Positions 19,876 to 50,173 are shown, counted from the first letter of the stretch. The stretch is 64,000 nt of DNA from Nitrospirota bacterium (GCA_963790205.1 CAWBNQ010000003.1:256001-320000), one strand, 5' to 3'. Notes: a model not told the origin generated them from the letters alone. Numbers and translations: made by a program.

Positions 19876-19881
19876 CCATCC

Positions 19882-26682: not shown

Positions 26683-26703
26683 CGCGGGTGTCGCGTGTGC
26701 AGG

Positions 26704-27561
26704 CTACGAGGTTTGTGGAGGATTTAAGAAGGGGCCTAAGTCCAGAGGGCTCACGATCTTTGAGAGGTTCTTTTTGCTCACGTGGAGATAAATAGTGGTC
26801 GTTCTCACCGACGCATGGCCGAGCAGAAGCTGAATATAGTGCAGATCAGCTCCCGACTCCAGCAGGTGTGTGGCGAAGCTATGCCGAAGCGTGTGACAAC
26901 TTGCCGGCTTCGTGATGCCGGCTTTTTTCTTCGCGCGTTTGAACGCCTCTTGGACGGTGCTAATGGAAATGTAGTTTTCAGGCTTTTCTCCCGGAAAGAG
27001 CCAATGCGTCGGTCTATATTCTTTCCAGTATTCCCGAAGCGCTTCCAGCGCTACCTGGGATAAAAGGGTATACCGGTCTTTTTTGCCTTTGCCCTGGTCC
27101 ACGCGTATCAGCATACGGCTGCTGTCGATGTCCGTGATCTTGAGCCGGGCGGTCTCGCTCGCCCGGAGCCCTGCCGAGTAGGTCACCATCAGCATCACGC
27201 GCTGCTTCAGGCTGGGAGTGGCTTCGAACATGGCCTGTACCTCCTCCCGTTCGAGAACGATAGGAAGTGTCTTGGTCGTCTTCGGATAGGGAATCTTGTC
27301 CATCACCCAACCTTTGCCCAGCGTCGTTTCATAGAGGAACCGCAGCGCGCTGTAAGTTATCTTCAGGGTGGATAGCGATACCTTCTTATCCCGGACGAGG
27401 TAAAGCAGATACGCTTTGACATCGCCGTCTTCCAAAAGGTCGGGCGGTTTTTTAAAATGGCGTTCCATATCGCGCGCCGCCCGGTGATACAATGATTGCG
27501 TCTTCGGGGCTAATCCTCGAAGCACCATGTCGCCCTGCATCTGTTCTTTGAACGTTTCCAT
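26704..27561 (-). CDS. Tyrosine recombinase (phage integrase family)
   Basis: YSAGLR, GKGKKDR, HTLRHSFATHLLE, LLGH, TTIY; catalytic residues intact. Confidence 0.95.
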   Translation of the reverse strand: METFKEQMQGDMVLRGLAPKTQSLYHRAARDMERHFKKPPDLLEDGDVKAYLLYLVRDKKVSLSTLKITYSALRFLYETTLGKGWVMDKIPYPKTTKTLPIVLEREEVQAMFEATPSLKQRVMLMVTYSAGLRASETARLKITDIDSSRMLIRVDQGKGKKDRYTLLSQVALEALREYWKEYRPTHWLFPGEKPENYISISTVQEAFKRAKKKAGITKPASCHTLRHSFATHLLESGADLHYIQLLLGHASVRTTTIYLHVSKKNLSKIVSPLDLGPFLNPPQTS

Positions 27562-30900: not shown

Positions 30901-31773
30901 GATTCCCCAACGTATCCGTTAGCGGGGAAAAAGGTCATCCTTTCTTTTGAGATGAACAGTTCGAACTTCCCCTATGGCCAGACCGTCGGCACAAACCCTT
31001 TCCCCAGCCAGGCGTACGCGATCATCGATAACGTATCCGTCCTTAAGTACGGCACTACTTATGAGTATGTGACCAACGGCGATTTCGAGACCGGAGACCT
31101 GACCGGATGGACCACGAACACGCCGGCGGAGGTGCAGAACATCACCTCGGGCGCGAGGTCCATTCCCGTAGGAACGGGAACGGATAAGCTTACGGTCAAG
31201 CGGTCCTTCTATACCGTGCCGAACAAGCTCTGGGGCAGGTGGGTGGACGTGATCTCGAACCCTACCGGCCACTCAATCACCACGACCGTTTCCTATGAAT
31301 CCGACCTGGAATCCTCCGGCGCGGGAGTCATCTACGACCCCGTGTCCTACAGCACCAGCACAACGCCGGCGCCCCATGCCCTCACCTCATGGGATTCCTC
31401 CTATTTCCTGTGCGGCGGTGTCCCGGGTTGTGACGGGACCCGCGATGTCGGCCTGGTATTCGGGAACGCAGCCACCGTGGATTTTTCATCGGAAACGGCT
31501 AATGGAATGTATAATGATATCGCTGACGGCAGCGAATACATCGATGTCACCTACAACATTACCGTGCCGGCGTACGGCAGGGTCGCGATCGTCAACTTCG
31601 TTCTTATGGACGGCACGGACACGGGCGTGGCCGCAACGGACACAACATTTCTGGCGTCGCAAATCGATGACGAGGCAAAGAACATCTTGAACAACTTTTG
31701 GACCGATCCCCAGTACCGGGACGGGATGACGACGCAGCAGATCAATGCGATTTGGAATTTCCCCCGGCCATAG
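27976..31773 (+). CDS. Large secreted Ser/Thr-rich multi-beta-sandwich surface protein (no heme motifs)
   Basis: SD AAGGAG; signal peptide; three (T/S)xPNGG-type Ig-like repeats; three (Y/F)(T/S)(I/L)SG...G.Y.F/I CarboxypepD_reg-like repeats; NGDFETG carbohydrate-binding-like motif. Confidence 0.85.
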   Translation: MSYLKKLKYTVLLSALMMTGLMSFVVTSAVADPLADALDNPVQTDGVTPLAFTPAGAAPWSAVTATLYNGGSGTVAQSGAIGGGAYSSITTTVTGPASLSFYQKVSSQLTYDKLTFSLDGSVKSTISGSVNWQQKLFTLPTGTHTLVWKYAKNLTINGGSDAAWLDKVVVSPNTALKVTYPNGGENLIAGAPVNITWNAPAAAEKYDLYFTTNNGTTWTSIASNYTGPGFMGITYPWTWPVPKSNMTACKVKVVAKNNAGVVVGTDMSDKVFAVNNVRLTSPNGSNVLAAGGSFDITWDSTATATSFNLYYTLNNGTTWTSLATNATGTDHMWSPLPVPPAGNMTACKVKIVAYNGSSMIGTDISDAPFTMQVLKVTAPNGGELMSAKTGTYTIGFLVSGLTNTSASATVSYTINGGSSWPVIGIISGGSAITPGTYTWDWQVPAVSAVKNAKVKVVIKSKSGVVLATDTSDANFTILPVFTISGTVSGATVTSVTMTLGGDDSNTTTTDSLGKYSFKTLLKGNYTISAAKAGYYFNPASTALAVTTANITTANFKATVSLNPTYTLSGTVSGATVTGVTVTLAGTVSGSVQTAVDGTYSFTNLPAGNYNVTPGKTGYTFGPLSRGVILSAADAPGVDFAALPSAGATYSISGKATYNGAGISGATITMIGDANATVLTDAGGNYIVKGLKNGSYTLTPSSALAYDFSPASVTKKVSGGSLTGVNFTGLGPVLGVLITSPKAPPLASFTQNIPSNDHTGPYDEIFPGMANLWSLDMDFSLVNGFDNQFYYAEELGVGGIFTSVASGISNFDTSGAGDSGGGNLFPIDQMFGDPTNNFNCYDPSDCSPPTFYTPVMGAADGVKIATVSDGASMAGSLPTGLLSTSVTGTYAAFLNATTDSRLQTTLDLTSLPTGSAINISWGNSVFLQMDLLQPLPPSYTPSYQVVLRNMDGSLLKTLYNNPPVGLHDNKGPITVYDSPTYPLAGKKVILSFEMNSSNFPYGQTVGTNPFPSQAYAIIDNVSVLKYGTTYEYVTNGDFETGDLTGWTTNTPAEVQNITSGARSIPVGTGTDKLTVKRSFYTVPNKLWGRWVDVISNPTGHSITTTVSYESDLESSGAGVIYDPVSYSTSTTPAPHALTSWDSSYFLCGGVPGCDGTRDVGLVFGNAATVDFSSETANGMYNDIADGSEYIDVTYNITVPAYGRVAIVNFVLMDGTDTGVAATDTTFLASQIDDEAKNILNNFWTDPQYRDGMTTQQINAIWNFPRP

Positions 31774-31920: not shown

Positions 31921-32095
31921 GCAGCAGGCCATCCCGCCCAATTCGCAGAGGTCTGACCTGACCAAACCGGCTTCTCAAGCCCCGCGGCCTTCGCTGAAAG
32001 ACCAAAAAGAAAGCGGGGCGTCGGCCCCGCTTTCCATCCGTCAAAAATCATATCAGCGGATCTTCATCGTTTTCGTCCAACGGGGCCTGTCCGGT

Positions 32096-33916
32096 TCAGG
32101 GATAGGTTGCATTGACGTGAACTTTGACCGTTGAGTCGGCGAAATGGCATTCCAGCGTGCAACTGCCCGTATGGTTGCCGTTGTCCGTGTAGATGGGGTA
32201 CGTATTCGTTCCGGTCGGCTTCACGATCGAGGTGTCGAAATTGATAAGATGGGTGTGCGATCCCGTGGCATTGTCCGGTACGCCGTGCGGATCGTGGCAG
32301 ACCGAGCAGGGGACGGGCTTATTGTCCGTCGGCGACAGAAGGTGGCCGCTGTGCCCGCCCTGGCCGGAGGTTTGCTGGAAGCTGTTGGCATTATTGCTCA
32401 GGATGCTGGTCTCGTTATGACACCAGTAGCAGAGCGCGTAGTATTGAGATTGATAGGGCGCGTTATTGACCACGGTCTCGTATTCCTGCCTGACGAGCGG
32501 GCTCCAGATGGAGCCGTGGGGCCCCCGGGGGCCTGAGCCCCCGATGGACGAGCTGGAATCGCTGTCGTGGCAATCGGTGCAGTAGATGATGCTTGTTGCG
32601 CTCATGCCGGGGGCGTACGAGGAGGGGAAGCTCGGTATTACGGGGTTTTTCCCCGCCCCCGCGACGGGATGGTACGACGGGTTGCCCGTCTGGAACGCCA
32701 CGCGCATGTCCAGGGTGCCGACAACGCGCGCAAGGGGCGTATAATAGGTGGAGTATCGCCAGCTTGAGTCCGCATGACACTTGAAGCAGATCTCATATTC
32801 ATTCGACGCGTAATTCGCGGGCGGAACAAGCGGCGAGTTATTGATGTCCACTCCGCTTACCTGGGCCAGCTTGCCCGACACGGCCGGCGCCGCCGCGGTT
32901 TGATTGTTCACGGCATGGGGGTTGTGGCAGTCGACGCATTCCACGTGGTTCGTTATCATCAGTGGCGATTCATTCGGTTCATGATGGTTCGCCGTTACCC
33001 CGATCTCCGTGGCCGCCACATCATGCTTGTACTGTTTGCCGAACTGCGCCTGAATATTCGTCGCTGCCACGTTTCCGTTGTGGCAGGGATAGCAGTTATC
33101 TTCCTCTTGCTGGTAGTTGAGCAGCCTCATCGGTCCGCCCGCGTTATGGGGGTTGTGGCAGCTTTCACAGCCGTTCTGCTGCACCGTCGTCCATCCGAAA
33201 TCCGTGTTGACGCCCGTCCGCGGCCAGGGGTTGGTCCCGGCATTGTTCCAGGTTTGTTGTGATGTGTTATGCGACGTCTGGTCCCATCCGCTCATCGTAT
33301 GGCACTCCGTGCACAGCCCTGAGTTGACGCTGCTTACCCTGAGGAATTTTTTGTTGGTGTCGTCGTGAGGGTCATGACAGGTGGTGCACTCTATGATCTC
33401 GTTCCCGTAGAAAACGAGGTTCGCCGGCGGCACCGGGTTGATCTCCGGGTTGGAAACCGACTGGGAATAGGAAAAAGAAATGGGGTGGTGCGACGTGAGC
33501 GAGGTGCCGAAATACGACGGACTCGACGAGGGTATCCCGCCAGCGACGTTCATCGCGATCCCGCTCGACGGCTGGACCACGTCACCGAGCGCGAGGGTGC
33601 CGTCGTGGCAGCTGAGGCAGAGCCGCGACGGCCCGGTCGGCGTCGACGACGGCGCGACCATGGTCGTGCTGGTGTAGGGGGTGTAGTTGACGGCCTCGAG
33701 CTTTTTGTTCCAGAGGGGCGTCAGCGCGGTCGCATTATGCGGGGCATGGCAGAAGATGCAGATTCTGTTTTCGGTCAGCGCCTTGATCTGTCCGGGACCG
33801 CTTGCCGAAAGGTTGTGTTTGCTGTAAACAATGCTCATTTTTGCGACGGCCGGCGGGCCCGAGAAGACGCCGGCGGCGCACAACAGCAGCGCTATGGCGC
33901 GGACATGGCTACTCAT
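32096..33916 (-). CDS. Secreted multiheme cytochrome c (11 CxxCH + 1 CxxxCH) with OmcE-like N-terminal tetraheme domain
   Basis: Signal peptide; SKHNLS..ICIFCHAPH..PLWN..LCLSCHDG..HHPISF..IECTTCHDPH..LCTECH, then 7 more CxxCH and a terminal CTLECH. Confidence 0.9.
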   Translation of the reverse strand: MSSHVRAIALLLCAAGVFSGPPAVAKMSIVYSKHNLSASGPGQIKALTENRICIFCHAPHNATALTPLWNKKLEAVNYTPYTSTTMVAPSSTPTGPSRLCLSCHDGTLALGDVVQPSSGIAMNVAGGIPSSSPSYFGTSLTSHHPISFSYSQSVSNPEINPVPPANLVFYGNEIIECTTCHDPHDDTNKKFLRVSSVNSGLCTECHTMSGWDQTSHNTSQQTWNNAGTNPWPRTGVNTDFGWTTVQQNGCESCHNPHNAGGPMRLLNYQQEEDNCYPCHNGNVAATNIQAQFGKQYKHDVAATEIGVTANHHEPNESPLMITNHVECVDCHNPHAVNNQTAAAPAVSGKLAQVSGVDINNSPLVPPANYASNEYEICFKCHADSSWRYSTYYTPLARVVGTLDMRVAFQTGNPSYHPVAGAGKNPVIPSFPSSYAPGMSATSIIYCTDCHDSDSSSSIGGSGPRGPHGSIWSPLVRQEYETVVNNAPYQSQYYALCYWCHNETSILSNNANSFQQTSGQGGHSGHLLSPTDNKPVPCSVCHDPHGVPDNATGSHTHLINFDTSIVKPTGTNTYPIYTDNGNHTGSCTLECHFADSTVKVHVNATYP

Positions 33917-34949
33917 GACGGTTCCCCGTGACCTGAAACATTTGAACCCTCCGATTGTAGGTGTCGCAGACATACAAAGTGTCCCGGTTGTCCAGGACCA
34001 ACCCTGACGGCAGCCAGAATTCACCCTGGCCGGTGCCGCGCCCCCCGATCGTAAACAGGAAGTCGCCGGTCAGGCTGAAGAGCTGGACATTGTCGAACAG
34101 GGCGTCCACGACGTAAATGACGCCGGTCCTGTCCACGGCGATCCCCTTCGGCATGGAGAAATCGCCGGAACCGTCGCCATGGTGGCCGAAGGACGACAGA
34201 AAGGTCCCGGAAGCATCGAAGACCTGGATCCTGAAGTTCATGGCGTCGGTCACGTACACGCGCCCGTCGGGGGAGGCGACGATATGGGTCGGAAAATTGA
34301 ACTGCCCCTGCCGCTCGCCGGGTCCTCCGAATGAAAAGAGGAGAGTGCCCTTTGTATCGAACGCGTATACCTTGTCCGCAAGGGTGTCGACGGCGTAGAG
34401 GATCTGCCTGGTGGAGGAAAACGACAGCCCCGTGGGCCGCAGGAGGTTGTCGGCGCCGGCTTTTTTAATCGAAAAAGACGGCTCTCCGTCCCGGTCAAAC
34501 ACGTAGATCGTGCCCCTCGACGAATCCGACACGTACAGCCTCGAATCATCATCGAACGCCACGCTTACGGGGGTCCTCAGCCTGTCCTTGCGAGCGCCGT
34601 GGATCTTCCGGTATTTCCGCTCCGCGGGCACATACAGGTGCACGCACCCGCGGCCCGGATCGGCTATGGCGATCCTTTCGTCGCGTCCGATCGCCGCTGC
34701 GACGGGGCGCACGATCGTATTGTCCTCCGCCCGGTTGCCGAAGACGATGGCCTTCAAGACGTTGGGTATCGTGGTCCCCGTTTCCTTGAACCCCCTGAGC
34801 GTCCCGAGGTAGGCCGCCCGTACCCTGTTCTCCTGGTCGAGCCACCGGGGCGGCTGGTCCGCCGACTCCATGACCGGCGACCATTTTGAAGCGCATCCCG
34901 CGGCTGACAGGGCCGCCAGACAAAGGAACAGTAGCATTTTATTTTTCAT
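33909..34949 (-). CDS. NHL-repeat beta-propeller lipoprotein
   Basis: Lipobox SAAGC; repeats GQFNFPTHI, GDFSMPKGIAVD, GEFWLPSGL. Confidence 0.9.
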   Translation of the reverse strand: MKNKMLLFLCLAALSAAGCASKWSPVMESADQPPRWLDQENRVRAAYLGTLRGFKETGTTIPNVLKAIVFGNRAEDNTIVRPVAAAIGRDERIAIADPGRGCVHLYVPAERKYRKIHGARKDRLRTPVSVAFDDDSRLYVSDSSRGTIYVFDRDGEPSFSIKKAGADNLLRPTGLSFSSTRQILYAVDTLADKVYAFDTKGTLLFSFGGPGERQGQFNFPTHIVASPDGRVYVTDAMNFRIQVFDASGTFLSSFGHHGDGSGDFSMPKGIAVDRTGVIYVVDALFDNVQLFSLTGDFLFTIGGRGTGQGEFWLPSGLVLDNRDTLYVCDTYNRRVQMFQVTGNRHE

Positions 34950-35151
34950 CTGTTGTATAAAGCGGTCTCCAGCCGCGACCAAAAAAAGCCGTCATTCCCG
35001 AATGCCTTGACCGGGGTCCTGGCGGAACTACTCAGGCCATAACATAAAAGCCCACAAAGAGTCATTCAACGTCCAGAGACTGCTTCAGCTTTTTGTTTTG
35101 AGCCGATCCCATGCTCCGTCATTTCTTCGCGTCGTTGCCTGCACCCAGCGA

Positions 35152-36534
35152 TTACGAGTGGTAACGCGAGTGCAGGGTGTGCCTTCGTGTGAGGATTATT
35201 TTTCGTTTCTAACCCGCCCCATCCGCGGCAAGGCCGTTCCGGTCAGGGTTTCTTTTGCTCCCGCGGCATCGGGACATCCAGGATTTCGATCTTCGCCCCT
35301 TTTTTCAATTCCTGTTCCCACGCTTCGCGGCGTTTCCTGAGCGCGTCGGCCCTGAGCTTTTGTTCGAGAGGGCCTTTGACTTCCTCATAGGACAGCTGTC
35401 TCTCCGGCGTGTACTCGGACAGTTTCATGATGTGCACGCCGTCGCCGGTCTTTATCGCGCCGGAAAGCTCCCCCTCCTTGAGTTTCCGGGCGGCGTCATA
35501 GAGCGCGGGCTCCTTTTCTTTTTTAAGGTCGAGGTCCCGAACGATGAAGTCGCCGTCGGGAGCGAGGCTCCACGGGTTTTTGTCCTTATCAGCCTTTATT
35601 CGGGCGATGAGCTCGGCCGCTTTCTTCCTTGACGCTCCGCTGTCGAGTTTGGCCGATATGGCCACGTCGACCACGGAGACTATTTCCGGCTCGATAAACC
35701 GGCCCTTCCGGCCCTCGTATTCCTTTCGCACCTCGTCTTCGGACACGCTGACCTTCTCCGTCACTTCCTTGGCGATGATAAGCTGAAGGAGCATGCCCCG
35801 TTCCAGCCCGGAGCGAAATTCCACGTCGGTCTCGTTCCGTTTTGCCAGGAACGCGTCATAATCCTTTTGATTGTGGCCGACGAGGTAGGAAATTGCGGCG
35901 TCGATGTCCCGCTCTTTTAGATGCAACCCCTGGCGCGCCGCTTCCTGGAGCGCCAGCTCCTGGAGGACCAGCTGGTCCAGGGCCTTCCTTCGGACCTCTT
36001 CAGGCGGCCCCGGGCTTTCCCGATTGAGCGCGCTCATACGGTCCATCATATCGTGAAGCGAGCGCTGGGTTATGACCGCATCATTGACCTTTGCCACGAT
36101 GATCTTTCGCTCATCGCGCGGCGTCGCGGCCGCGCGCGGCGATATGGTTTCAGCGGCCGGGTGCAGCTTTGCGCAGCCGGCGATGACGAGAGCGGCGGCA
36201 AAAATCATGATGATGCCGGCTGTTCGAACGGGTGCTTTCACGATGTTCCTCCTCATATATTGTTACTCCTATTGTCAAAATTCACCACAGAGCGCACAGA
36301 GCAGGTCTTGAATGTATGGGGGCAACTTCCTCTGTGTCCTCCCTCCCCCCGCTGCGCTCTTTTTATTACCGGTAATTACCAGCTCAGTTTGTTTTGCCTT
36401 GTCATTTAAACCACGAGAACACAGAAGCATCTTATTGATAAATAAACTCAACGTGCTTGGATTTTACCCGGGCATTCCCCGGCGCCCTCTGCCTGCGCCC
36501 GGCGTTTACGAGTGCTCAGCGCGAGTGCAGGGTG
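35152..36534. repeat. Two copies of a ~29-bp intergenic motif (35152-35179 and 36506-36534)
   Basis: TTACGAGTG-gtaa-CGCGAGTGCAGGGTG versus TTACGAGTG-ctcag-CGCGAGTGCAGGGTG. Confidence 0.65.
35243..36256 (-). CDS. SurA/PrsA-like chaperone lipoprotein with parvulin-like domain
   Basis: Lipobox VIAGC; VAKVNDAVIT, LQELALQEAARQG, LKEGELSGAIKTGDGVHIMKL, LKKGAKIEI. Confidence 0.85.
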   Translation of the reverse strand: MRRNIVKAPVRTAGIIMIFAAALVIAGCAKLHPAAETISPRAAATPRDERKIIVAKVNDAVITQRSLHDMMDRMSALNRESPGPPEEVRRKALDQLVLQELALQEAARQGLHLKERDIDAAISYLVGHNQKDYDAFLAKRNETDVEFRSGLERGMLLQLIIAKEVTEKVSVSEDEVRKEYEGRKGRFIEPEIVSVVDVAISAKLDSGASRKKAAELIARIKADKDKNPWSLAPDGDFIVRDLDLKKEKEPALYDAARKLKEGELSGAIKTGDGVHIMKLSEYTPERQLSYEEVKGPLEQKLRADALRKRREAWEQELKKGAKIEILDVPMPREQKKP

Positions 36535-36625
36535 CGGTTTCATGCTTTGCCTCTCTTTTTTATGAAACTTTTGACGCCGCCTCGTTACTGAAGAATCAAC
36601 TTTTTTTCAAGATCATGCGACGGTA

Positions 36626-38632
36626 CTAGAACAGCTTCCTGCTCAGTGTCATGTAATAATATTGAGAGTTAAGCGTTGTTTTGGTCGTTGCCAGCATGTT
36701 CTCCTGGCGGTTCAATTGCGCCCCCCCGGTGACCGAAAAGAGGCCGAGCTGCCAGGTCAAGGAGGTGTTGATGAAGACCGTATCGGAATCGAAGGTCGAG
36801 CTGGTCCGGTAATAAGAACCTCCCATAAGAAGGACCAGGTGGTCCTGGGGAAATTTCATGTCCACGCCCATGCTCGTTCCCTCGGTCGAGGTCCGGTGCT
36901 CGGCCCCCTGCAACACTGGCGTAGGCAGATAGTCCGTCACCGTATAGAAAAGGGACGCCGTGGCGTTCGTGTCCTCACCCAGGGGCGTCCGGTATGTCGC
37001 CGTTGCTTTCCGTGATTTGTAGGGGTTCAGACGGGAATCGTAATCCTGGTATTCCACGAGGCCGGAATAGGGGCCCGCGTTTACGGTCATGCCCACGGTT
37101 TTGCTCGCGGTCCGCTCCGGGCCGCCCGCGAGCGACCCGGACACCACTTCCTGTCCCATAATAAGGTAATTGAAATACGCGGCCAAAAGGTTGTCGAGGA
37201 GGTCCAGCCTGAACAGATATCCCGAAAACGTAGAGGTGAACTTCGATTGGACCGACAGCATGTACGAGGCGCGAAATTCATACACAAAGCCGGGAGGTTC
37301 CGGCGTCGCCGTGAACACGCTTACGACCGTGATCTGGATGCTGTTCCCCAGGGCGCCGGCAACGTAGTCGATCTGCGGCCGCAAGGTGATCAGGGTCCCG
37401 GTCCCCGGGTCTTTCACTTGTATCTGGATGGTGCTTGCAAGGACATTCTGCTGGACGAGCATAAAGGTCCCTGGCACCGCGGTGCTGTGCGCCTCGTTGA
37501 GGACCACCGGCGTTCCCGTTCGTTCCGAATCCGAGCTGCCGAGCTGGATGCCGGCGGTGAGCCTTCCGGTCGGGATGGTTTTCGTGTACGTGGTGCCGAG
37601 CGTCTGAGAACGGCTCGTGATTTCCCCCGACGAGGACGTGGAGGTCAGGTCGACCAGGGAGTAGTTCGTCGTCAGGCTCCGGTAAAGCTGCTGGGAAAGG
37701 GAAAACATCGTACTGTTGGACCGGTTGGATTCCTCCGTTGCCGGGCCCGAAGGGGTTTCCCCGGTCTTGTCGACCTCGTTCCGGTACGCAGTGGAAGCGT
37801 TGGCGGTGAAGTTCCACGGCAGGGCGGCGGCCAGCTGTTCCGTCCAGAAAAACGTGGTGGCCTGAAAGTCAGGAAGAAGCGGCGAGGTCTGTTCGTGCGT
37901 TATATTGTTGACGCGGCTGTCGAGGGTGAAGCCCTCATAGCGGATGTTGTTGCCGGCGGTGTATTCATCACGCGTGGTGATGCGGTCGCCCGTTGACTGG
38001 GTTTCGGAGTGCGTATACGACGCCGTATCGGTCACCACCTGCCCCTTGTAAGCGCCGTTCACGCGGTAGGAGTTCGTGTCCGCTTTGTACAGGGTCGAAT
38101 CGACGGAAGTGTCGAAATAGCTCGCCTGAAAGGAAAGAGGCCGTTGCTTGTACTTGAAAATGGCCCCCTGTTCGTCCACGGTCCCTATCAGCCCCGCGGC
38201 CCCCCCGGGCGCCCCCGGGAAGTATCTCTGCTGATGGAGCTTGAAGAGTTCGAGGTTATAGGGGTGCTCGGGGAGCAATACCGTCCTCAGCTGGTAGCTC
38301 GTCGCGGCCGCGGTCCTCGATACCCCCGTGCCGCTCTCCTCGTTCAGCCCTTCCGACAGCGATGCGTCGAATACGAGAAATCTGGGATGATATACGAAGC
38401 CGTCGGCGGCAAAGCGGACGCTTTCGGTCAATAACCTGTCATCGGAGACGGTCCTTTGGCCGCCCTGCGTGGACTGGGTGTCGTACGACTGCGCGTTCAT
38501 TTCCAGGTATCCTTCAGAATAGGTGATTGTGGGGACAAATGAAAGCTCCTCCCCCAGGGATGCCGCAGGCGGGTTCAGAAAAAAAAACACCAGCGTTGCG
38601 CAGGCAACGCCTGTGAGAGAGGTCCCTCGCAT
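36626..38632 (-). CDS. Large outer-membrane beta-barrel protein (porin-cytochrome conduit or export channel candidate)
   Basis: Signal peptide, alternating Tyr/Thr/Ser-rich strands, GFVYHPRFL motif, C-terminal beta-signal YYYMTLSRKLF. Confidence 0.75.
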   Translation of the reverse strand: MRGTSLTGVACATLVFFFLNPPAASLGEELSFVPTITYSEGYLEMNAQSYDTQSTQGGQRTVSDDRLLTESVRFAADGFVYHPRFLVFDASLSEGLNEESGTGVSRTAAATSYQLRTVLLPEHPYNLELFKLHQQRYFPGAPGGAAGLIGTVDEQGAIFKYKQRPLSFQASYFDTSVDSTLYKADTNSYRVNGAYKGQVVTDTASYTHSETQSTGDRITTRDEYTAGNNIRYEGFTLDSRVNNITHEQTSPLLPDFQATTFFWTEQLAAALPWNFTANASTAYRNEVDKTGETPSGPATEESNRSNSTMFSLSQQLYRSLTTNYSLVDLTSTSSSGEITSRSQTLGTTYTKTIPTGRLTAGIQLGSSDSERTGTPVVLNEAHSTAVPGTFMLVQQNVLASTIQIQVKDPGTGTLITLRPQIDYVAGALGNSIQITVVSVFTATPEPPGFVYEFRASYMLSVQSKFTSTFSGYLFRLDLLDNLLAAYFNYLIMGQEVVSGSLAGGPERTASKTVGMTVNAGPYSGLVEYQDYDSRLNPYKSRKATATYRTPLGEDTNATASLFYTVTDYLPTPVLQGAEHRTSTEGTSMGVDMKFPQDHLVLLMGGSYYRTSSTFDSDTVFINTSLTWQLGLFSVTGGAQLNRQENMLATTKTTLNSQYYYMTLSRKLF

Positions 38633-38736
38633 GGTCGGGAAGACAAGGACTCCTTTTTATTCCGGCCCGGACAAACCCCGGGAAGGGGTCGGGCCGGACC
38701 AAAACTGTTTTGACCGCGAAGCGCGTGAAGATCCAT

Positions 38737-39273
38737 TTATTTCAGCAAAAAGTCGTTGTCCGATCCGTGAGGGTCGTGGCACTCCGTGCATTCCATGTCG
38801 ACCGCATCCTGATGGACCTTTCGCGAGCCGACCTCAGCCGCGTCGTGGCAGGTAAGGCAGAATTGCGAAGGGTCCGCAACGAGCATAAAAGGTTTTCCCG
38901 TGCCATGGGGATCGTGGCATACGCGGCATCCTCCCGAGGCGACGGGCCCGTGTATTTTCCTTTTCCGGATGTTCAGGTCGTGGCAGTTCAAGCACAACTT
39001 TTCCACCGGCAGGATGAGCTGGTTGCTGCCGTCCTGGCGGTGGCACGCGCTGCACATCTTTGCGGCATAAGGACCGTGTTTTCTTCCGGCGCCGGTCTGC
39101 TCATCAGCCCGGGCCCTCATGGTTTTGCCCTCGGGCCCATTTGCCATTTGCTCTCCGGGCTGGGGCACGCCGTCGAAGAAAAAGCTGAGCGCCGTGTACC
39201 GCGTCTGCGGAGAACAGCCGGACAAGGCAAGCATTGCAACGGCCACCGCGGCAAGTATCAACCGCGCGAACAT
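38737..39273 (-). CDS. Pentaheme cytochrome c lipoprotein
   Basis: Lipobox LSGC, FFFDGVP, KHGPY; five CxxCH (CSACH, CLNCH, CRVCH, CLTCH, CTECH). Confidence 0.92.
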   Translation of the reverse strand: MFARLILAAVAVAMLALSGCSPQTRYTALSFFFDGVPQPGEQMANGPEGKTMRARADEQTGAGRKHGPYAAKMCSACHRQDGSNQLILPVEKLCLNCHDLNIRKRKIHGPVASGGCRVCHDPHGTGKPFMLVADPSQFCLTCHDAAEVGSRKVHQDAVDMECTECHDPHGSDNDFLLK

Positions 39274-39276
39274 CTT

Positions 39277-40440
39277 CTATTGTCCCTCTTTGGCAGGCCC
39301 GCCCTTGTCCGCGGCTGCTTGCTCCTTCTTTGCCTTCTCAAGTCTCGCTTTCACTTGTTCCCGGAGCTCGGCGTCCGTCGGATACGTTTTCCCCTCTTCC
39401 CTGCCCACGCCGAAAATATTGATCATCCTGATTCCGAATTGACTGACGACGATGGCCAGGTTCTCGATCTTGAATTTCGGGTCCGCGTATTGTTGAAAAT
39501 ACTTGATATTGTCGTAATCCACGATTACCTGGGCGGGAAGATTCAGGTCGCCCGGAAATCTCCCGCCCTTGCTGAAGAAGAGGAGAAGGTCTCCCTCCTT
39601 GTCGAAGATCTGCACGTTGGAGAAGGCGGCGTCCACGACGTAGAGCCGGTCATCCCGGTCCACGGTGATGCCTTTCGGACGCGCGAAGGTGCCGCTCTCC
39701 GTGCCGATCTCTCCGAGGGCGCCCAGGAAATGGCCGTCCCGGTCGAATTTTACGATTTGAAACCTGGCCATATCGGACACGAGCAGGTGCCCATCTTTGT
39801 CAAAGGCCACGTTCGTGGGCCGCCCCAACCGGTCCTCGGGCGGTCCTGTCTGCCCGATTTGTCTCAGGACGTTGCCGCTCTTTTTGTCCATGACGACGAT
39901 CTCATAGTGTTTCATGTCGGCCACGTAAAGCTCGTCTCCATAGGGCACGGCGTCGACCGGCCTCATGGTGTCTGACGAACCGAAGGCGGTGACGTAAAAA
40001 TCGTTCTTGTCGAAGACGACCACCTGTCCCCTGACCGGGTCCGCCACGTACTTGTTGCCTTCGGCATCGATGCGGATATTGACGGGCTGAAGCAGCTTCC
40101 CCAGCCCCTGGGCGCCGGCGAGATCCTCAAAGGTCCTCTTATTCAGGTCAAAGACGGAGACCCCCCGGTTTGTGTCGGCGACGTAGATTTTGCCGCCCCA
40201 GATCGCAACGCCGTAGGGCTTGTCCAGCCGCCGTTTGCTCTCCTGGGCCCCGGTGATGAACCTCTCAAAAGCGGATTTTTTACGGGCGAAGTCCTTTTCC
40301 CCCACAAAGGAAGTGAGATACTGCACCCGGGGCAGTTCAGGCGGACCGGGATAGAAAACCTTGAATATTTCCTGCTTCGGGGCCGTGGTAGCGCAGCCGG
40401 CCATGAGGGCGAGGATGATGACGATACTGAATTTTTTCAT
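39277..40440 (-). CDS. NHL-repeat beta-propeller lipoprotein
   Basis: Lipobox LMAGC; FYPGPPELPRVQYL; GTFARPKGITVD; GDLNLPAQV. Confidence 0.9.
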   Translation of the reverse strand: MKKFSIVIILALMAGCATTAPKQEIFKVFYPGPPELPRVQYLTSFVGEKDFARKKSAFERFITGAQESKRRLDKPYGVAIWGGKIYVADTNRGVSVFDLNKRTFEDLAGAQGLGKLLQPVNIRIDAEGNKYVADPVRGQVVVFDKNDFYVTAFGSSDTMRPVDAVPYGDELYVADMKHYEIVVMDKKSGNVLRQIGQTGPPEDRLGRPTNVAFDKDGHLLVSDMARFQIVKFDRDGHFLGALGEIGTESGTFARPKGITVDRDDRLYVVDAAFSNVQIFDKEGDLLLFFSKGGRFPGDLNLPAQVIVDYDNIKYFQQYADPKFKIENLAIVVSQFGIRMINIFGVGREEGKTYPTDAELREQVKARLEKAKKEQAAADKGGPAKEGQ

Positions 40441-40560
40441 GATATTGTAATGGACTCCTAAATAGTTGGGAATTGTTTCATTGCGGGTATGGCAATAGTA
40501 CCATGATGGTTCTGAATTTTCAACATAATTTCAACACGCGCAAGGGCATTATGAAAAATG

Positions 40561-40600
40561 AAAAAAAAAGAGGGGGATGAAATTCATCCCCCTCTTTTTC
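40561..40600 (-). terminator. Strong intrinsic terminator after the OmcE-like gene
   Basis: GAGGGGGATG-aaatt-CATCCCCCTC flanked by A/T tracts on both sides. Confidence 0.8.
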
Positions 40601-40611
40601 ATGGTTTTTAC

Positions 40612-41367
40612 TTACTTGTCATGGCAGGTGAGGCAGATCTGGCTTCCCGTACCGGCGGGGCCGCCGTCGTCGTACGTCCAGAGGAACTTAAAGCCCTCGT
40701 TGCCCTTGTTGTGGACGGAGTGGCAGGAAACGCACTCTACATTGCCGTTCCACAGAAGGTCGTTGATGGTGAGGCCGGTGGTGCCGACGCTGCTCGAAGG
40801 ATCCATAATCCCGTCATCCACGCCCTGGACTGCAGCATAGTTGAACCCGACCGGATGATGATTGGAGAGGTCGCCGCCCGCGCCGACCTGATAGCCGGCG
40901 GGCATGGTGATGCCGCCTGCGCCTACTGTCGGGTTGCTGTCGAAGGTGCCGTAGGAGTTGACTGCAACCGAACCGTCATGGCAGCTCAGGCAAAGCTTCG
41001 ACACGCCGCCCGGTCCCGCCGAAAGGTCCGCATTCAACTGCATGGCAAGGCTGTTCGGAATGTCGCTGCCGTTCGTGTAGGAAGCATAGGAGGTGATGGT
41101 GCTCAGCGTGTGGTTCCAGAGAGGGTAGTAATTGATCTGGGTGCCTTGTACCATATCTGTTTTTCTGGCTGCGTGGTGCGGCGTATGACAAAATACGCAG
41201 ATACGGGTCTCACTAGCTTGACCCACTGCAATACCGCCAGCTCCCGTGACGCTCAAATCATGCAAAGAATCTTTAATACCCGATCCAGGAGCAACTCCAG
41301 CCATCGCAAAAGAAGCGCAGGCCAAAACCAAGCCGATCGCTAAACAAATTGAAATATACTTTTTCAT
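40612..41367 (-). CDS. omcE: OmcE-like secreted tetraheme cytochrome c (cytochrome nanowire candidate), 251 aa
   Basis: SD AAGGAG; signal peptide; motif order IKDSLHDLS..ICVFCHTPH..PLWN..LCLSCHDG..DLSNHHPVGF..VECVSCHSVH..FL..GSQICLTCHDK matches Geobacter OmcE as I recall it. Confidence 0.85.
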   Translation of the reverse strand: MKKYISICLAIGLVLACASFAMAGVAPGSGIKDSLHDLSVTGAGGIAVGQASETRICVFCHTPHHAARKTDMVQGTQINYYPLWNHTLSTITSYASYTNGSDIPNSLAMQLNADLSAGPGGVSKLCLSCHDGSVAVNSYGTFDSNPTVGAGGITMPAGYQVGAGGDLSNHHPVGFNYAAVQGVDDGIMDPSSSVGTTGLTINDLLWNGNVECVSCHSVHNKGNEGFKFLWTYDDGGPAGTGSQICLTCHDK

Positions 41368-41560
41368 TACGTATTCTCCTTTTTCTTTGTCCTGTTTATA
41401 AAAAACAGGATGTTTAGTAGAATGTAGGGTCTCCCTAAAATTATAGGTAAACTCCTTTTTTGCCCCTGTTTCCTGAAGCTGAAGCAGGGTTTGTCCCAGC
41501 CGGCTTTCCCCCGAAGGCCGAACAAAGACATGAATGCTATGGCAGGCTGATTCTGATAAT

Positions 41561-41576
41561 AGCAATAGTAGTGCCA
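41561..41576 (-). promoter_or_regulatory. Sigma54 promoter of the omcE-like operon
   Basis: Minus strand TGGCACTACTATTGCT. Confidence 0.8.
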
Positions 41577-41932
41577 GAATAAAATAATATATTTTACAAT
41601 AAGTTGTAAAATATGCGATGGTATTGACCAATGCTCCTGGGTGATATGACCCAATGTTGGCGTGTACAGACTACAAGAAGTGAATAAAAGCTCTAATTTT
41701 CGCGCAAGGTCGCAGGTAAAGTATGGATCCCAAAAGCTATTGAGACGCAGAAAAATTGGCAAAATACGACAACCTAAAGGATAGACGCTTCGAAAAAGTA
41801 TTTCAGCTGTCTTTCGAGATCCATCGCGTGCCATTGCGATCCAAGGGAGAAGCAATTCGGTCATATATTTTGAGTTACCATAGATTTTCATGGTGGGAAA
41901 AAGTTTCAACTTAATTTTGCCTGGGTCTGGGT

Positions 41933-41969
41933 TGGGTGAAATAACCCCGGTTTTAGGTTAAATACCGCT
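41933..41969. promoter_or_regulatory. Candidate tandem enhancer-binding-protein sites
   Basis: TGGGTGAAATAACCCC and TAGGTTAAATACCGCT 21 bp apart; resemble the pair at 55245-55282. Confidence 0.45.
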
Positions 41970-42346: not shown

Positions 42347-45300
42347 ATGTATGTAAAAAAGAACTTTATTTTTTGGCTAGCCGCGCTTGCCCTGGTCATT
42401 CCGCTTTTCATTGCGGGCACCGCCAGCGCAAAGTATATGAGCGACGGCGCCGTGCAGAACGCCACGAACGGCGGCTGGAACACGCCGAATGACATGATAT
42501 GTATCGTCGGCGTGCATACTGACGGCACGCTGGATATCGCTGACGGCGTAACGAACGCCAGGGATTGCATCTATCTCCAGACAGGAACCATGAATGGCGG
42601 GACAGCCTTCGACCTGACTGGCATGACTACGTCCGCTGCGTGTACAACCGCAGGCGGAACAGGAAACGACGGCGCGAAGCATTCCTGGGCAACCAGCTTC
42701 TGCACCAAATCCCTGAAGGGTCTGGACAGGACCCAGCAGATGTGCCAGGGCATCGGTGGCACCTGGGTAACTACCGGTAAGTGCGTTGCCTACGGCAGAC
42801 AGTTCAAGGGCCAGGATGCAAGCGGCACGCCTTTGGCCATTGGCACAAAGGGTACAACGCAAGGAGCGGGCACGGGCTATTGCTATACGACCATGAACAT
42901 GACCACATCGTATGGTACGACGACGGTTCCCGGCGGCACGACTGGCACAATATGTCCTGCTGGCAGCACGAACTCGTCGACTGCCTATGACTGGGCATAC
43001 AGCAGCAGCAAGTGCACCTATGCCAAGGGTATTGCCGGTTATTTGAACGCGGCGCTTACCAAGGCTGACGGCAGCACCTATGCCGCCAATTCTTACCTCG
43101 ATCTGAGCCTGTTCAACACGATGGGCGACTGCCTCGCGGCCGGCGCTTCGTGGGCCAACTGGACCGGCCAGGCAGCTTCGACAACTTCCATTCCCACGAC
43201 CCCGTCGGCTTCCACAATACCGGCGTGGGTTTATAACACGAACACGCCTGACGCTGACAACGGCTGCCTCCATTGCCACAGCAGCCTGACCGAGTACAAC
43301 GGCCCTGCCGAGAGAGAGAAAGACAGCTATGTCAAGACCGGCCACAAGAACATGCTGAGAGCAGTCAAAGCCGGCATGCCTTGGGCGGGTCCGGACGGCG
43401 TGGCGTACACGACCGACGGCGCCAACACCATCAACTTCATGACCACGTCCGATTCGTATGCGAAGATCACGGTGGGCGGCGTAGACCAGAACCTTTATTA
43501 TATCTACGGCGACTGGATGGCCGCGCTTCCGACAACGGTCTACGGGACGAACGGCTACTCGTCAGCCCCGACGGGATCCAACAATGGTTACACCTGCTAT
43601 GCGTGCCATGCTACAGGCGCGAGTGACAGTTCCGGTCCCGTCCCCGGCGTGCAGTCGATCGGCACTTCCGGATACGCCGGGATTGAGCCGCAGGCCACGT
43701 TCCCGGGAATCAGTTTTGCTAATAACCCGAAATGGGACTTGGACGGCATTCAGTGTTCACGGTGCCATAATGCGACGGTCGCGCCGATATCTGCGACACA
43801 GATCGCGGCATCCAGCTTCAAGACCACCGCTCCCACCAGCGGAGGCATGGGCGCGCTTGCTTCAGGCACCGGCAGGAACAACCTCTGCTTCGGCTGCCAC
43901 CAGAGCATCGACAAGGCCTGGCCGGCCGGCACAGCGCAGTACGATCCCACGAAGATCCCGGTCGGCGTAAGCCACGGGGCGCAGTATGGACGTGAATTCA
44001 ACGGCCATGTGCTGGGCAACTCCTTCCTGAACAGCGTGCACGCAGAGTACGCGGGCGCCCAGAGCGGCAACGGATCGATCACGTTGAACGCCCTCGGGAA
44101 GTACGATCTGACCGACCCCAACGGGACCTCAGAGTACGGCAGCTCCTTCCAGGGCTTCACCTGCTGGCAGTCGTCCACCGGCAACAGCCCGGCGAAGACC
44201 AAGGCTGACGGCACGGAAATAAAGACCAAGTCAGACTGCGAAACCCTCTACGGTGCAGGGACGTGGAGAGCAGACGCCTCCGGCGATCTGGGTACCGTGC
44301 AGGGCTCCTGCAGCACCTGCCACGACGTTCATAACAGTCTCTTTGTCGCTTCTCAGAAAGAAGCGGCAATGAGAAAGACGTGCGAGGATTGCCATGTTAA
44401 CAACGCCACGACCGGCGCGACCATCAGCTCCGTTCCGACGGCGTCGGTCATACGCCATCCGTCGGGCTCGGGCACGCCGTTCGATGCTGCCAAATATGAC
44501 AGTGCGTGCGTGGTCTGCCATATGGCCTCGCAGGCAGAGGAGAACGGGGACCAGGTTTCCATGCCGGTGCATGTCTGGAGGATCAACACCAACGCATCCT
44601 ACAACACGTTCCCGACCATGGCCCAGTTCTACGGCGGGTCCTGCAGCGTACACACCGGCCCGGTCCAGAATGCTCCCAGCAAGCCGGTTGTCTACCTGTC
44701 CGACGTCGCTGCCGCTAATTCGTCGTGTACCGCCGCAGGCACCCCTTCCGTGTGCTGCACGGGTAATAAGACGGGAACCTGCGTTGATGCGTCCAATTGC
44801 ACTGCGGCTTCCGGCACCTGGACTGCTGCGACAAAGAACAGATCAGCTCAAACCGCGCCTGATGGTTCTTACACGAACGCGGTCTGGGTCGATCTCGACC
44901 TCGCGTGCGGCCAGTGCCATGGCGGCTCGCTCGGCACCAGCGCAACGCACAACGGAGCGCTGTATATCTCCAAGGCGGCGCTTGCCGCGGCTGCAACCGG
45001 CATGCACAGCGCCGGCGTAGTGAGCCAGCCGACGGCCAGCACTCCCGTGGTGTCGCATGGCACGGTTACCGTGACCGCCTGGACGGTAAGCTTCGCCGAC
45101 ACGTCAACCTCCGGGGACGGGACCACGCCCAACGTAAATGTGAACTGGGGTGATGGAAACTACAACCACGGAGTTGCCGGCGATGTCTTCACCCATACGT
45201 ACGCGAGCACGCGGGCGAGAAGCTACACCATTAATCATGTGGCCATCAGCTCCGTGAATTCGAGGCTGGTCTCCACACCTGCAGATAGGTTCTCGGTCAA

Positions 45301-45568
45301 CGTGCCCCAGCGCTACACGATATCGGGCATCATCACGACCAGCACGGGCACCACGCCGATGGCGAACGCGTATGTGTTCCTGAAGGCGGGCACCCGCACG
45401 GTGCAGTACCATAAGACGGACGCGACCGGTACCTTCAGCTTCTCGAAAGTTCTTCCGGGCAACTACGCGGTCCATGTGTACAAGTTCGGGACCACCTTCG
45501 GGACCGACGCCACGATCAGCGGCCTGAGCTCGGATCAGTCGCTGACCATCAGCTCGATAACACCGTAA
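42347..45568 (+). CDS. Secreted octaheme cytochrome c, paralog 1 (Cys-rich N-terminus; C-terminal PKD-like and CarboxypepD_reg-like domains)
   Basis: SD AAGGAG; signal peptide ending TASA; 8 CxxCH (CLHCH, CYACH, CSRCH, CFGCH, CSTCH, CEDCH, CVVCH, CGQCH); VNWGDG..THTY; YTISG...GNYAV. Confidence 0.92.
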   Translation: MYVKKNFIFWLAALALVIPLFIAGTASAKYMSDGAVQNATNGGWNTPNDMICIVGVHTDGTLDIADGVTNARDCIYLQTGTMNGGTAFDLTGMTTSAACTTAGGTGNDGAKHSWATSFCTKSLKGLDRTQQMCQGIGGTWVTTGKCVAYGRQFKGQDASGTPLAIGTKGTTQGAGTGYCYTTMNMTTSYGTTTVPGGTTGTICPAGSTNSSTAYDWAYSSSKCTYAKGIAGYLNAALTKADGSTYAANSYLDLSLFNTMGDCLAAGASWANWTGQAASTTSIPTTPSASTIPAWVYNTNTPDADNGCLHCHSSLTEYNGPAEREKDSYVKTGHKNMLRAVKAGMPWAGPDGVAYTTDGANTINFMTTSDSYAKITVGGVDQNLYYIYGDWMAALPTTVYGTNGYSSAPTGSNNGYTCYACHATGASDSSGPVPGVQSIGTSGYAGIEPQATFPGISFANNPKWDLDGIQCSRCHNATVAPISATQIAASSFKTTAPTSGGMGALASGTGRNNLCFGCHQSIDKAWPAGTAQYDPTKIPVGVSHGAQYGREFNGHVLGNSFLNSVHAEYAGAQSGNGSITLNALGKYDLTDPNGTSEYGSSFQGFTCWQSSTGNSPAKTKADGTEIKTKSDCETLYGAGTWRADASGDLGTVQGSCSTCHDVHNSLFVASQKEAAMRKTCEDCHVNNATTGATISSVPTASVIRHPSGSGTPFDAAKYDSACVVCHMASQAEENGDQVSMPVHVWRINTNASYNTFPTMAQFYGGSCSVHTGPVQNAPSKPVVYLSDVAAANSSCTAAGTPSVCCTGNKTGTCVDASNCTAASGTWTAATKNRSAQTAPDGSYTNAVWVDLDLACGQCHGGSLGTSATHNGALYISKAALAAAATGMHSAGVVSQPTASTPVVSHGTVTVTAWTVSFADTSTSGDGTTPNVNVNWGDGNYNHGVAGDVFTHTYASTRARSYTINHVAISSVNSRLVSTPADRFSVNVPQRYTISGIITTSTGTTPMANAYVFLKAGTRTVQYHKTDATGTFSFSKVLPGNYAVHVYKFGTTFGTDATISGLSSDQSLTISSITP

Positions 45569-45729: not shown

Positions 45730-46473
45730 ATGAGAAAACGCACACTCGTAACGATCATACTGGTATTTTTGGTCTCGCACCTGGCGCTCGTCTCGTGCAA
45801 AAAAACGGAGACCGCGGGCGTAGCGCCGTCAGCGGAGGAAGCGCACCGGACGGCGATGCTGGAAAAAAGCTTTGCAGAATCGAAAAAAGTGGTTGCCGCC
45901 CGGGTCAACGGAGAGGCCATTACCCTGTTCACCCTTTTTCGGGAGATGAACGCGCTTGCCCCCCGATACCTGGGCGCCGGCGGCCAGAGGACCCCGGAAC
46001 TCGACAAGAAGATCAGGAGCGAAGCGCTCGACATAGTAATCTTCGAGGAGCTGGCCGTGGAGGAGGCGAGAAAGCGCGGCATGAAGGCGGCGCCGGAAGC
46101 GATAGAGGGCGAGATAAGGAAAATAAAAGCGAGCACAGGCTCTCCAGCCGGTTTCCAGGAGTATCTCGACAAGAACGGCCTTACGGAAGGGGAACTCCGC
46201 AAGACGCTGGAGCAGGACGCCCTGTTTGAAATGATCGCCACGCAGGAGATCGACGCGAAGATAACGGTAACCGATGCGGCCCTCAGGGCGCGCTATAAAA
46301 AAGAAAAGACCGGACTGAAAGACGCCGCCCACCGGCAAATGACGTTTGAGGAGTCGAAAGGAATGCTTGAGCAGAAGGTCAGGGCCGAGGCGGCGGAAAA
46401 GAGGATGCGGGAGTGGGAAAAGGAACTGAGAAAAAACGCCCGCATCGAGCTCGTCGGGCAAAAGCGTGGTTGA
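45730..46473 (+). CDS. SurA N-terminal-domain chaperone lipoprotein, copy 1
   Basis: SD GAGGAG; lipobox LVSC; AARVNGEAIT, FEELAVEEARKRG, LRKNARIE; no rotamase domain. Confidence 0.85.
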   Translation: MRKRTLVTIILVFLVSHLALVSCKKTETAGVAPSAEEAHRTAMLEKSFAESKKVVAARVNGEAITLFTLFREMNALAPRYLGAGGQRTPELDKKIRSEALDIVIFEELAVEEARKRGMKAAPEAIEGEIRKIKASTGSPAGFQEYLDKNGLTEGELRKTLEQDALFEMIATQEIDAKITVTDAALRARYKKEKTGLKDAAHRQMTFEESKGMLEQKVRAEAAEKRMREWEKELRKNARIELVGQKRG

Positions 46474-49948: not shown

Positions 49949-49964
49949 TGGCACTGCAAATGCA
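49949..49964 (+). promoter_or_regulatory. Sigma54 promoter of octaheme cytochrome 2
   Basis: TGGCACTGCAAATGCA. Confidence 0.72.
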
Positions 49965-49981: not shown

Positions 49982-50173
49982 AAATGATGCCACAGTCCTT
50001 CCCCCGATTGATGTGGCTTTCATTTTGTTTATGGCAGGCTGAGACAAGAAGTACACAGCAGTAGTTATCAGGCCGGTATGAATCAGGATGAATCAGGCCT
50101 GATACACCCTGCTCCTGCGAAAACGCGGGCGCAGGCAAGGTTTAAAAACCTAAAAATCAAAAGGAGAAGCAAC
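49982..50173 (+). ncRNA. Candidate structured 5' leader (copy 2)
   Basis: Same first stem as 42141; second stem TATCAGGCC...GGCCTGATA; third stem CCTGCTCCTGCG-aaaa-CGCGGGCGCAGG. Confidence 0.45.

Follow-up and report, generated by a model that had tools for sequence, protein, structure and literature searches.

A tetrahaem cytochrome of the OmcE superfamily in an OmcE/Uet-type gene cluster of a Nitrospirota bacterium

A 64,000-nt stretch of the genome of a Nitrospirota bacterium (GCA_963790205.1, CAWBNQ010000003.1:256001-320000), hereafter the window, whose own numbering is used for coordinates, carries a cluster of genes for multihaem cytochromes, lipoproteins and an outer-membrane barrel, which spans ~9.6 kb from about 32008 to 41576 and lies entirely on the minus strand. 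The cluster is headed by a gene at 40612..41367 (-), which translates into a 251-aa Sec-type exported tetrahaem c-type cytochrome, and according to homology and phylogenetic trees this protein is assigned to the OmcE superfamily, where it falls among paralogous, UetA-like 'PLWNH' cytochromes. An NHL-repeat lipoprotein, a pentahaem lipoprotein and the barrel come next. An earlier note on this DNA took these four genes for an OmcE-like nanowire subunit heading an assembly operon and closed the locus at 36626, which is too early, as the cluster continues to ~32008 with a peptidyl-prolyl isomerase (PPIase), a second NHL propeller and a 12-haem cytochrome fused to an OmcE-like module.

The 251-aa protein possesses a Sec-type signal peptide with a cleavage-like AMA/G site and four CxxCH motifs (CVFCH, CLSCH, CVSCH and CLTCH), together with extra histidines in the motifs HDLS (H36), CHTPH (H64), NHHP (H170/H171) and CHSVH (H219). 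A phmmer search matched it end to end with the OmcE structures 9yuq (E 6.4e-19) and 7tfs (E 7.3e-17). Moreover, when the profile of its family was aligned by hhalign with that of nine sampled OmcE orthologues, which also served as the true omcE reference set for the promoter and hairpin comparisons below, the match had a probability of 100% and an E value of 8.5e-46 over 220 columns, and the four CxxCH motifs and the histidines of HDLS, CHxPH, HP and CHxVH fell in register with OmcE, which accounts for all eight haem ligands. H36, H64, H171 and H219 align with the distal histidines that complete the bis-His haems of OmcE, one of them at a haem of the neighbouring subunit, and are invariant or at least 90% kept in the 41 close and 36 distant relatives in which ligand conservation was scored. 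The features by which the OmcE family is recognized, namely four CxxCH motifs in OmcE order and spacing within an exported protein of ~200-250 aa, are present. The alignment to OmcE had been proposed in the earlier note, and it confirms both the motif order and the candidate distal ligands named there; on these comparisons, the homology of the protein to OmcE is genuine.

Relatives of the small cytochrome are numerous (3623 at E <= 0.001), and the nearest named homologues of both this protein and the barrel come from metagenome-assembled genomes (MAGs) of Nitrospirota. The gene is patchy within its own family, being found in five of 24 other genomes at E <= 1e-30, and none of the 16 genomes sampled outside the family but within the phylum contained it at the same threshold. 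An orphan paralogue, 47% identical to the small cytochrome, is also present in the same genome (C8:219987-220733), and at that locus neither NHL, barrel or cytochrome neighbours nor a sigma-54 element or hairpin were found.

The small cytochrome gene is bracketed by strong expression signals. An exact match to the sigma-54 -24/-12 element, TGGCAC-N5-TTGC, lies at 41562..41576 (-), ~195 nt before the start codon, and a Shine-Dalgarno sequence, AGGAG, is located at 41376..41380 (-), 8 nt before the ATG, so that the consensus sigma-54 promoter and the strong ribosome-binding site described earlier are both in place. The exact pattern was found twice in the window against 0.10 expected, a count that one of 100 shuffles reached, while with one mismatch allowed the matches (six against 4.79 expected) were no commoner than chance. 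The source genome possesses rpoN, and a sigma-54 activator gene of the response-regulator type is located at 23182-24630. As well, a near-palindromic 15-mer, TGGGTGATATGACCC, occurs at 41638..41652, and its second copy, TGGGTGAAATAACCC, occurs at 41933..41947 (direct repeat family D2), both in the AT-rich divergent region between the genes of the small cytochrome and a 1073-aa cytochrome; both copies are candidate activator-binding sites, and the first, ~90 nt ahead of the point where the transcript is inferred to begin, may be an enhancer-binding site. Right after the stop codon, an intrinsic terminator with a 17-bp stem, a 3-nt loop and a U run is present at 40564..40600 (-), its folding energy of -26.8 kcal/mol (z = -5.66) not being equalled in any of 200 shuffles, which agrees with the strong terminator reported before. 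Between this terminator and the next gene, two sigma-70-like matches at 40444..40523 (-), each with 9/12 consensus positions and one with an extended TG, were recognized by consensus only and could possibly represent a separate start for the downstream genes. Because the strong terminator and these sites point to more than one transcription unit, the cluster is probably not the single operon that had been supposed.

The same bracket recurs in relatives. Among orthologous loci of the same family, a sigma-54-type element was found 140-253 nt upstream in five of six, and a hairpin with a T run follows the stop codon in four of the five that have downstream sequence. In the true omcE reference set, the element was found upstream of eight of nine genes, and the hairpin likewise follows eight of the nine (L115 has its element only inside a called open reading frame (ORF), and L116 has the element without the hairpin). 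Across phyla, terminator-like hairpins were counted after 30 of 66 small cytochrome genes (23 of the hairpins being strong), compared with 9/45 NHL1, 9/66 NHL2, 7/54 pentahaem-type, 4/30 barrel, 8/56 large cytochrome and 0/8 PPIase genes. This enrichment suggests that the small cytochrome is needed in excess over the barrel, and the arrangement of promoter, small cytochrome and terminator suits a component that, like pilins, has to be made in excess; the earlier idea of a layout that would yield more subunit than accessory protein has thus gained support. Apart from the one-mismatch sigma-54 count, nothing speaks for unrelated or decayed neighbours with accidental promoter and terminator matches, an explanation that is barely credible given the intact frames, the synteny seen across phyla, an exact sigma-54 match that is both rare and conserved in relatives, and a terminator far more stable than its shuffles. 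A gene order recurring in many phyla, together with a promoter and terminator recurring in relatives, places these features beyond chance, and the conservation data refute such an accident as far as sequence analysis goes.

The reading that we favour, with some reservation, is that the small tetrahaem cytochrome is made in excess and serves as an abundant extracellular and probably filament-forming part of an OmcE/Uet-type outer-membrane apparatus, filament formation itself being possible by analogy with OmcE, in which inter-subunit His-haem ligation has been described (PMC9473688). Several observations weigh against it. First, the bit score of the small cytochrome to 7tfs is 65, compared with 147 (E 1e-41) for a sampled OmcE orthologue (L114). 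A 159-row FastTree phylogeny places it among separate small 'PLWNH' cytochromes, and in a 65-row IQ-TREE phylogeny it belongs neither to the OmcE clade (SH-aLRT 94) nor to the clade of N-terminal modules of large cytochromes (96). Moreover, no structure from its own clade was found by phmmer in the PDB, and an AF2 model built from 41 sequences without haems (pLDDT 50.4, pTM 0.46) was too poor for a fold search. In addition, the sigma-54 element is weakly kept across phyla, being present in two of 38 loci with a strict pattern and five of 38 with a loose one (0/38 in the opposite-strand control), and the promoter is for this reason regarded as lineage-specific. Clusters of such composition have also been interpreted in print as porin-cytochrome conduits instead of wires. 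Finally, if the invariant H86 discussed below ligates a haem, the small cytochrome may be a self-sufficient monomer.

Because of the difference in bit score and its position outside the OmcE clade, the 251-aa protein is, on present trees, not an OmcE orthologue and is a member of a paralogous clade, so that the OmcE likeness claimed in the earlier note holds as homology and not as orthology. In the FastTree phylogeny, the nine OmcE orthologues stand as a separate group, with a support of 87 for a 10-row set containing them, and this clade branches together with the N-terminal modules of the large cytochromes, while among the small cytochromes a support of 99 was obtained only for a 21-row subclade. 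The deeper order of the three groups was not resolved by IQ-TREE, and we therefore make no claim that the large-cytochrome N-modules are the sister of OmcE. The H, R or K that follows PLWN, counted without de-duplication, was considered as a clade marker and rejected, as the small cytochromes with NH do not form one clade in IQ-TREE.

Two histidines beyond the eight ligands bear on how the protein might work. H86, the last residue of PLWNH, is invariant in both the 41 close and the 36 distant relatives, and H170 is invariant in the 41 close ones, while the solved OmcE proteins carry R and D at these positions, respectively, and the large cytochromes have mostly R or K at the equivalent of H86. 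Both residues may function in propionate contact, as a spare ligand or in metal binding. For H86, a basic propionate contact fits, although a ninth haem ligand may also be possible, and the fact that the site is basic (R/K/H) across the superfamily fits the former as well as the latter. The question matters for a rival explanation, according to which the cluster is a conduit without polymer, where the barrel sheathes the pentahaem and/or 12-haem cytochrome as MtrB does MtrA and the tetrahaem protein is a monomeric, UetA-like surface or shuttle cytochrome docking on the 12-haem protein. An invariant H86 that satisfied the haem left by OmcE to its neighbour would suit such a monomer, as does the position of the small cytochrome outside the OmcE clade; on the other side, all eight OmcE ligand positions are kept, a propionate contact explains H86 equally well, the subunit-type expression bracket is common to true omcE genes, and the hairpin enrichment suggests an excess over the barrel. 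On balance, we regard a conduit of this kind as rather unlikely, though as the more serious of the structural alternatives.

The genes downstream of the small cytochrome are real, as the earlier note had described them from NHL1 to the barrel. NHL1, at 39277..40440 (-), encodes a 387-aa NHL-repeat beta-propeller lipoprotein (Pfam NHL E 1.6e-15; lipobox-like LMAG/C), and the following gene at 38737..39273 (-) encodes a 178-aa lipoprotein cytochrome with five CxxCH motifs (LSG/C; Paired_CXXCH E 2.2e-28). The outer-membrane beta-barrel at 36626..38632 (-) consists of 668 aa with ~30 long strands and a C-terminal Phe, and its AF2 model, built from 36 sequences, is all-beta with a pLDDT of 87.3, a small beta domain being inserted around residues 386-449. 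Over its full length, the barrel most closely resembles the structures of the giant barrels SprA (Z 14.9) and MtrB (6r2q_B; Z 14.4, rmsd 8.0, 467 residues aligned), while no sequence match was found in Pfam, NCBIfam or PDB. Foldseek and VIA-align returned generic large barrels only and the ESM Atlas unnamed clusters only, and of its 136 homologues all those among the names listed are 'hypothetical protein'. A 337-aa SurA-like PPIase lipoprotein (Pfam Rotamase_2 and SurA_N; IAG/C lipobox) is encoded at 35243..36256 (-), followed by the second NHL beta-propeller lipoprotein, NHL2, at 33909..34982 (-) (Pfam NHL E 3.4e-24), whose stop overlaps the start of the next gene. The latter, at 32096..33916 (-), encodes a UetJ-like cytochrome of 606 aa with 11 CxxCH motifs and one CxxxCH, and a terminator-like hairpin of 12 pairs, 8 of them GC, at 32008..32035 (-) closes the cluster. 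None of the seven cluster proteins scored above an NCBIfam cut-off except for a generic doubled-CXXCH domain.

The full-length structural likeness of the barrel to MtrB, one of its two top matches, is a further point for a conduit without polymer. Similar to MtrCAB and other porin-cytochrome conduits (6R2Q), the window has a giant outer-membrane barrel beside multihaem cytochromes, and the C-terminal part of the 12-haem protein matches MtrC/MtrF domain II/IV. However, the barrel shows no sequence similarity to MtrB, so that the likeness of fold is an analogy only, the pentahaem lipoprotein lies far below the cut-off of the DmsE/MtrA family TIGR03508 (53 against 192 bits), and the NHL propellers, the PPIase and the OmcE-like modules are no Mtr parts. 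Membership in the Mtr/Pcc type, which is defined by an MtrB/PioB-family barrel and an MtrA/DmsE decahaem cytochrome, was consequently rejected.

The 12-haem cytochrome carries, at residues ~27-210, a complete OmcE-like tetrahaem module. Its N-terminal part matches 7tfs with an E value of 1.4e-24 and 9yuq with 2.2e-19, so that by these scores the module is as close to OmcE as the small cytochrome, or closer. The rest of the protein is an octahaem extension (Pfam MtrC/MtrF domain II/IV, E 2.9e-15). In the 31 relatives in which its conservation was scored, all 12 haem sites are invariant, as are H34, H60, H144 and H184, the distal histidines of OmcE type, and H216, which lies just after the fourth haem motif, is 97% conserved. 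Together with H216, the conserved histidines of the N-module (H34, H57, H60, H104, H144, H181, H184 and H206) amount to nine for four haems. In the available text of PMC13712944 (Petersen et al. 2026), the missing 'anchor' of OmcE wires, which was not found in omcE operons, is expected to carry nine histidines for its four haems, and the N-module matches this requirement. We tentatively suggest, while holding it to be improbable as a whole, that the 12-haem cytochrome is a dedicated and co-inherited end piece of the wire, which would cap or seed a polymer of the small cytochrome and lead its haem chain into an eight-haem MtrC-like rod, that each OmcE-like module would dock on an NHL propeller of its own, and that uet and omcE would be two versions of one ancient wire-plus-socket machine.

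The order of these genes is widely kept. A stand-alone OmcE-like tetra- or pentahaem gene is present in 62 of 80 related genome loci sampled from many phyla, and an NHL1-type gene immediately follows it in 40 of the 62. Among the 28 of these 40 that have at least 3.5 kb of downstream sequence, 22 contain the barrel, 20 have a cytochrome directly after NHL1, and 19 also have the pair of NHL2 and large cytochrome, which occurs anywhere in the locus in 43 of 80. The cytochrome encoded right behind NHL1 has between 5 and 13 haem motifs in otherwise syntenic loci (for instance, nine haems in L022, L060, L071 and L075, 11 in L024 and L068, and 13 in L077), and in this respect it resembles a haem wire of adjustable length, a point in favour of a conduit without polymer.

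A second sample was centred on an Oryzomonas MAG and included 81 genomes of its family, which we take to be Geobacteraceae, 36 of them with OmcE-like genes. In this sample, the true omcE type and the type of the window occur as separate loci. Three of four loci of the window type have a small tetrahaem, NHL, pentahaem, barrel, NHL, 11-haem OmcE-fusion and 13-haem gene in this order, while L120, the fourth, starts with the 13-haem gene and ends with the small tetrahaem gene. The four true omcE loci consist of a 454-aa ORF, a ~285-aa ORF, 9-haem and 8-haem cytochromes, an NHL protein and OmcE, with a second NHL gene directly after OmcE in three of four (a 543-aa ORF lies between them in L123), and then a 740-761-aa protein without a match to any window query. 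The PPIase, the pentahaem cytochrome and the OmcE-fused large cytochrome of the window were not found in these four loci. Their layout agrees with the published description, in which, as far as the available text of Petersen et al. goes, omcE clusters comprise two multihaem cytochromes, two propeller lipoproteins, OmcE and a large barrel (PMC13712944).

Compared with the omcE clusters of Desulfuromonadia, represented by OmcE of Geobacter sulfurreducens (7TFS) and the OmcE bundles of Desulfuromonas soudanensis (9YUQ), the window thus shares the motif order and eight ligands of the subunit, two propeller lipoproteins, a large barrel, two further multihaem cytochromes, and the sigma-54 element and hairpin bracketing the subunit gene, while it differs in having PLWNH where OmcE has PLWNR, in the placement of its small cytochrome outside the OmcE clade, and in the three genes absent from the sampled omcE loci. 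In the accessible part of the same source, the context of a large barrel and a propeller lipoprotein was used for selecting wire-capable OmcE homologues (PMC13712944), and the window has both of these near its small cytochrome gene.

The gene set fits a uet-type cluster better than a true omcE cluster. As described in the available portion of a preprint on Tenderiales (10.1101/2022.05.06.490989), uet encodes a tetrahaem cytochrome (UetA), a PPIase (UetB), a barrel predicted to have 28 strands (UetC), NHL proteins (UetH/I) and an undecahaem cytochrome (UetJ), and a similar set has been reported in Gallionella (PMC10734462). Five part types of the uet clusters of 'Ca. Tenderia electrophaga'/Tenderiales and Gallionella, namely tetrahaem, PPIase, very large barrel, two NHL proteins and undecahaem, all lie within 32096-41367 of the window, and uet-ordered gammaproteobacterial loci were recovered with the window proteins (e.g., L034, L027 and L053). 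The likeness to Tenderia Uet rests on the published descriptions together with these loci. In uet itself, the NHL genes UetH/I stand directly before UetJ, and small periplasmic cytochromes are present. Unlike uet, the window has a pentahaem lipoprotein instead of three periplasmic trihaem c7-type cytochromes, one of its NHL genes follows the tetrahaem gene so that the gene order differs, and its large cytochrome has a twelfth haem site, CxxxCH; a cupredoxin, which with the three trihaem cytochromes makes up UetD-G, was not matched by Pfam among the window cluster proteins. That this gene content equals that of uet again favours a conduit without polymer, as the Uet apparatus was modelled as a conduit (10.1101/2022.05.06.490989; PMC10734462); nevertheless, in the available text of the preprint the authors themselves allow that UetA and UetJ may interact or polymerise. 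No paper with both 'OmcE' and 'Uet' as whole words was found in the literature searched.

Other systems are more distant. The osc cluster of OmcS (Shen et al. 2025, via PMC13194489 and PMC13712944, in the parts of those texts available) also has a wire subunit gene with companion genes, of which OscH was proposed for folding and OscE, OscF and OscG for secretion (via PMC13194489), and a 'porin-like pathway' for mounting the OmcS-type wire is mentioned in the available text of PMC13712944. Unlike OmcE, OmcS is a hexahaem protein without sequence likeness to it, and the accessory genes were compared by description only; Portela et al. 2024 (PMC10954620) do not mention 'osc', NHL or propeller. 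In Desulfovibrio ferrophilus IS5, according to the available text of PMC5815863, multihaem cytochromes occur with NHL propellers, which are thought to stabilise an outer-membrane complex. A preprint on peat MAGs (10.64898/2026.05.27.727921) describes, as EET1 porin-scaffold-cytochrome, 'OmcE-like' cytochromes with 8-13 haems beside porins, a reading similar to that of a conduit without polymer. For both IS5 and EET1, the comparison with the window was made through the text of the papers. Taken with the gene content, these comparisons mean that the cluster belongs to the already described OmcE/Uet kind, and the earlier suggestion of a new assembly operon does not hold: it is neither a new system nor a new assembly operon.

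If the small cytochrome is indeed the abundant, filament-forming part, as we prefer to read it, the apparatus could work in the following way. Sec export and haem attachment would come first, after which the PPIase and the two propeller lipoproteins might help to fold or dock the OmcE-like modules at the outer membrane, where the very large barrel would act as sheath, pore or socket. The pentahaem lipoprotein would feed periplasmic electrons into the barrel, the 12-haem protein would join barrel and wire through its OmcE-like module, and the small cytochrome would form a head-to-tail stack, held together as in OmcE by His-haem ligation between subunits. Instead of exporting respiratory electrons to minerals or partners, the apparatus might also work in reverse, as was proposed for Uet in Tenderiales and Gallionella, and draw electrons out of Fe(II), minerals, cathodes or partner cells into the periplasm, which is compatible with either structural reading. 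In favour of uptake, Uet clusters were described, in the available texts, in these electron-uptake organisms, the available text of PMC5815863 connects NHL-containing cytochrome clusters with electron uptake by Desulfovibrio ferrophilus IS5, and related loci were found in MAGs titled Gallionella, Sulfuricella and Thiobacillaceae. Since true OmcE wires stem from metal and electrode reducers and the window contains nothing that would settle which way the electrons run, uptake is put forward here as a doubtful option.

These results have several implications. Because two related cluster types coexist in one genome sample, metagenomic 'OmcE-like' matches need a tree before they are labelled as OmcE wires. 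How nanowires are exported, anchored, started and stopped is, in the available text of PMC13712944, a stated open question; the coexistence of the two cluster types, the bracket common to both and the cross-phylum hairpin enrichment bear on this question, as does the OmcE-fused 12-haem cytochrome, a concrete in-cluster candidate for an anchor or tip. Moreover, the locus adds a well-assembled example outside Desulfuromonadia.

Several other features of the window are of note. On the opposite side of the divergent region, three paralogous giant multihaem cytochromes are encoded on the plus strand at 42347-45568 (1073 aa), 50078-53353 (1091 aa) and 55512-57986 (824 aa), all of which end in a CarboxypepD_reg-like domain and contain stretches that are 82-96% identical in DNA. 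SurA_N-like genes (+) follow the first and second of them at 45730-46473 and 53515-54264, and near-consensus sigma-54 elements precede the second and third at 49949-49963 and 55426-55440, so that the set looks like a recently duplicated module. The other exact sigma-54 element of the window, at 25147-25161 (+), points at a gene for a 1265-aa secreted repeat protein (27976-31773), and the genes of an IS91-type transposase and a tyrosine recombinase, at 25489-27561 (-), lie between the two; a mobile element may have split this promoter from its gene. Upstream of the cytochrome island, a PilM/PilN-secretin-T2SS-F cluster is present at 13343-21072, and a polysaccharide cluster (GT2, GT4, epimerase, deacetylase, flippase, methyltransferase and TPR) is present at 869-10849. 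In the available text of PMC13712944, glycosylation genes adjoin freshwater omcE clusters, unlike the polysaccharide genes of the window, which are >20 kb away. Finally, a 453-aa multihaem cytochrome with five doubled-CXXCH stretches and a likeness to MtrC-type domains is encoded at 60558-61919 (-).

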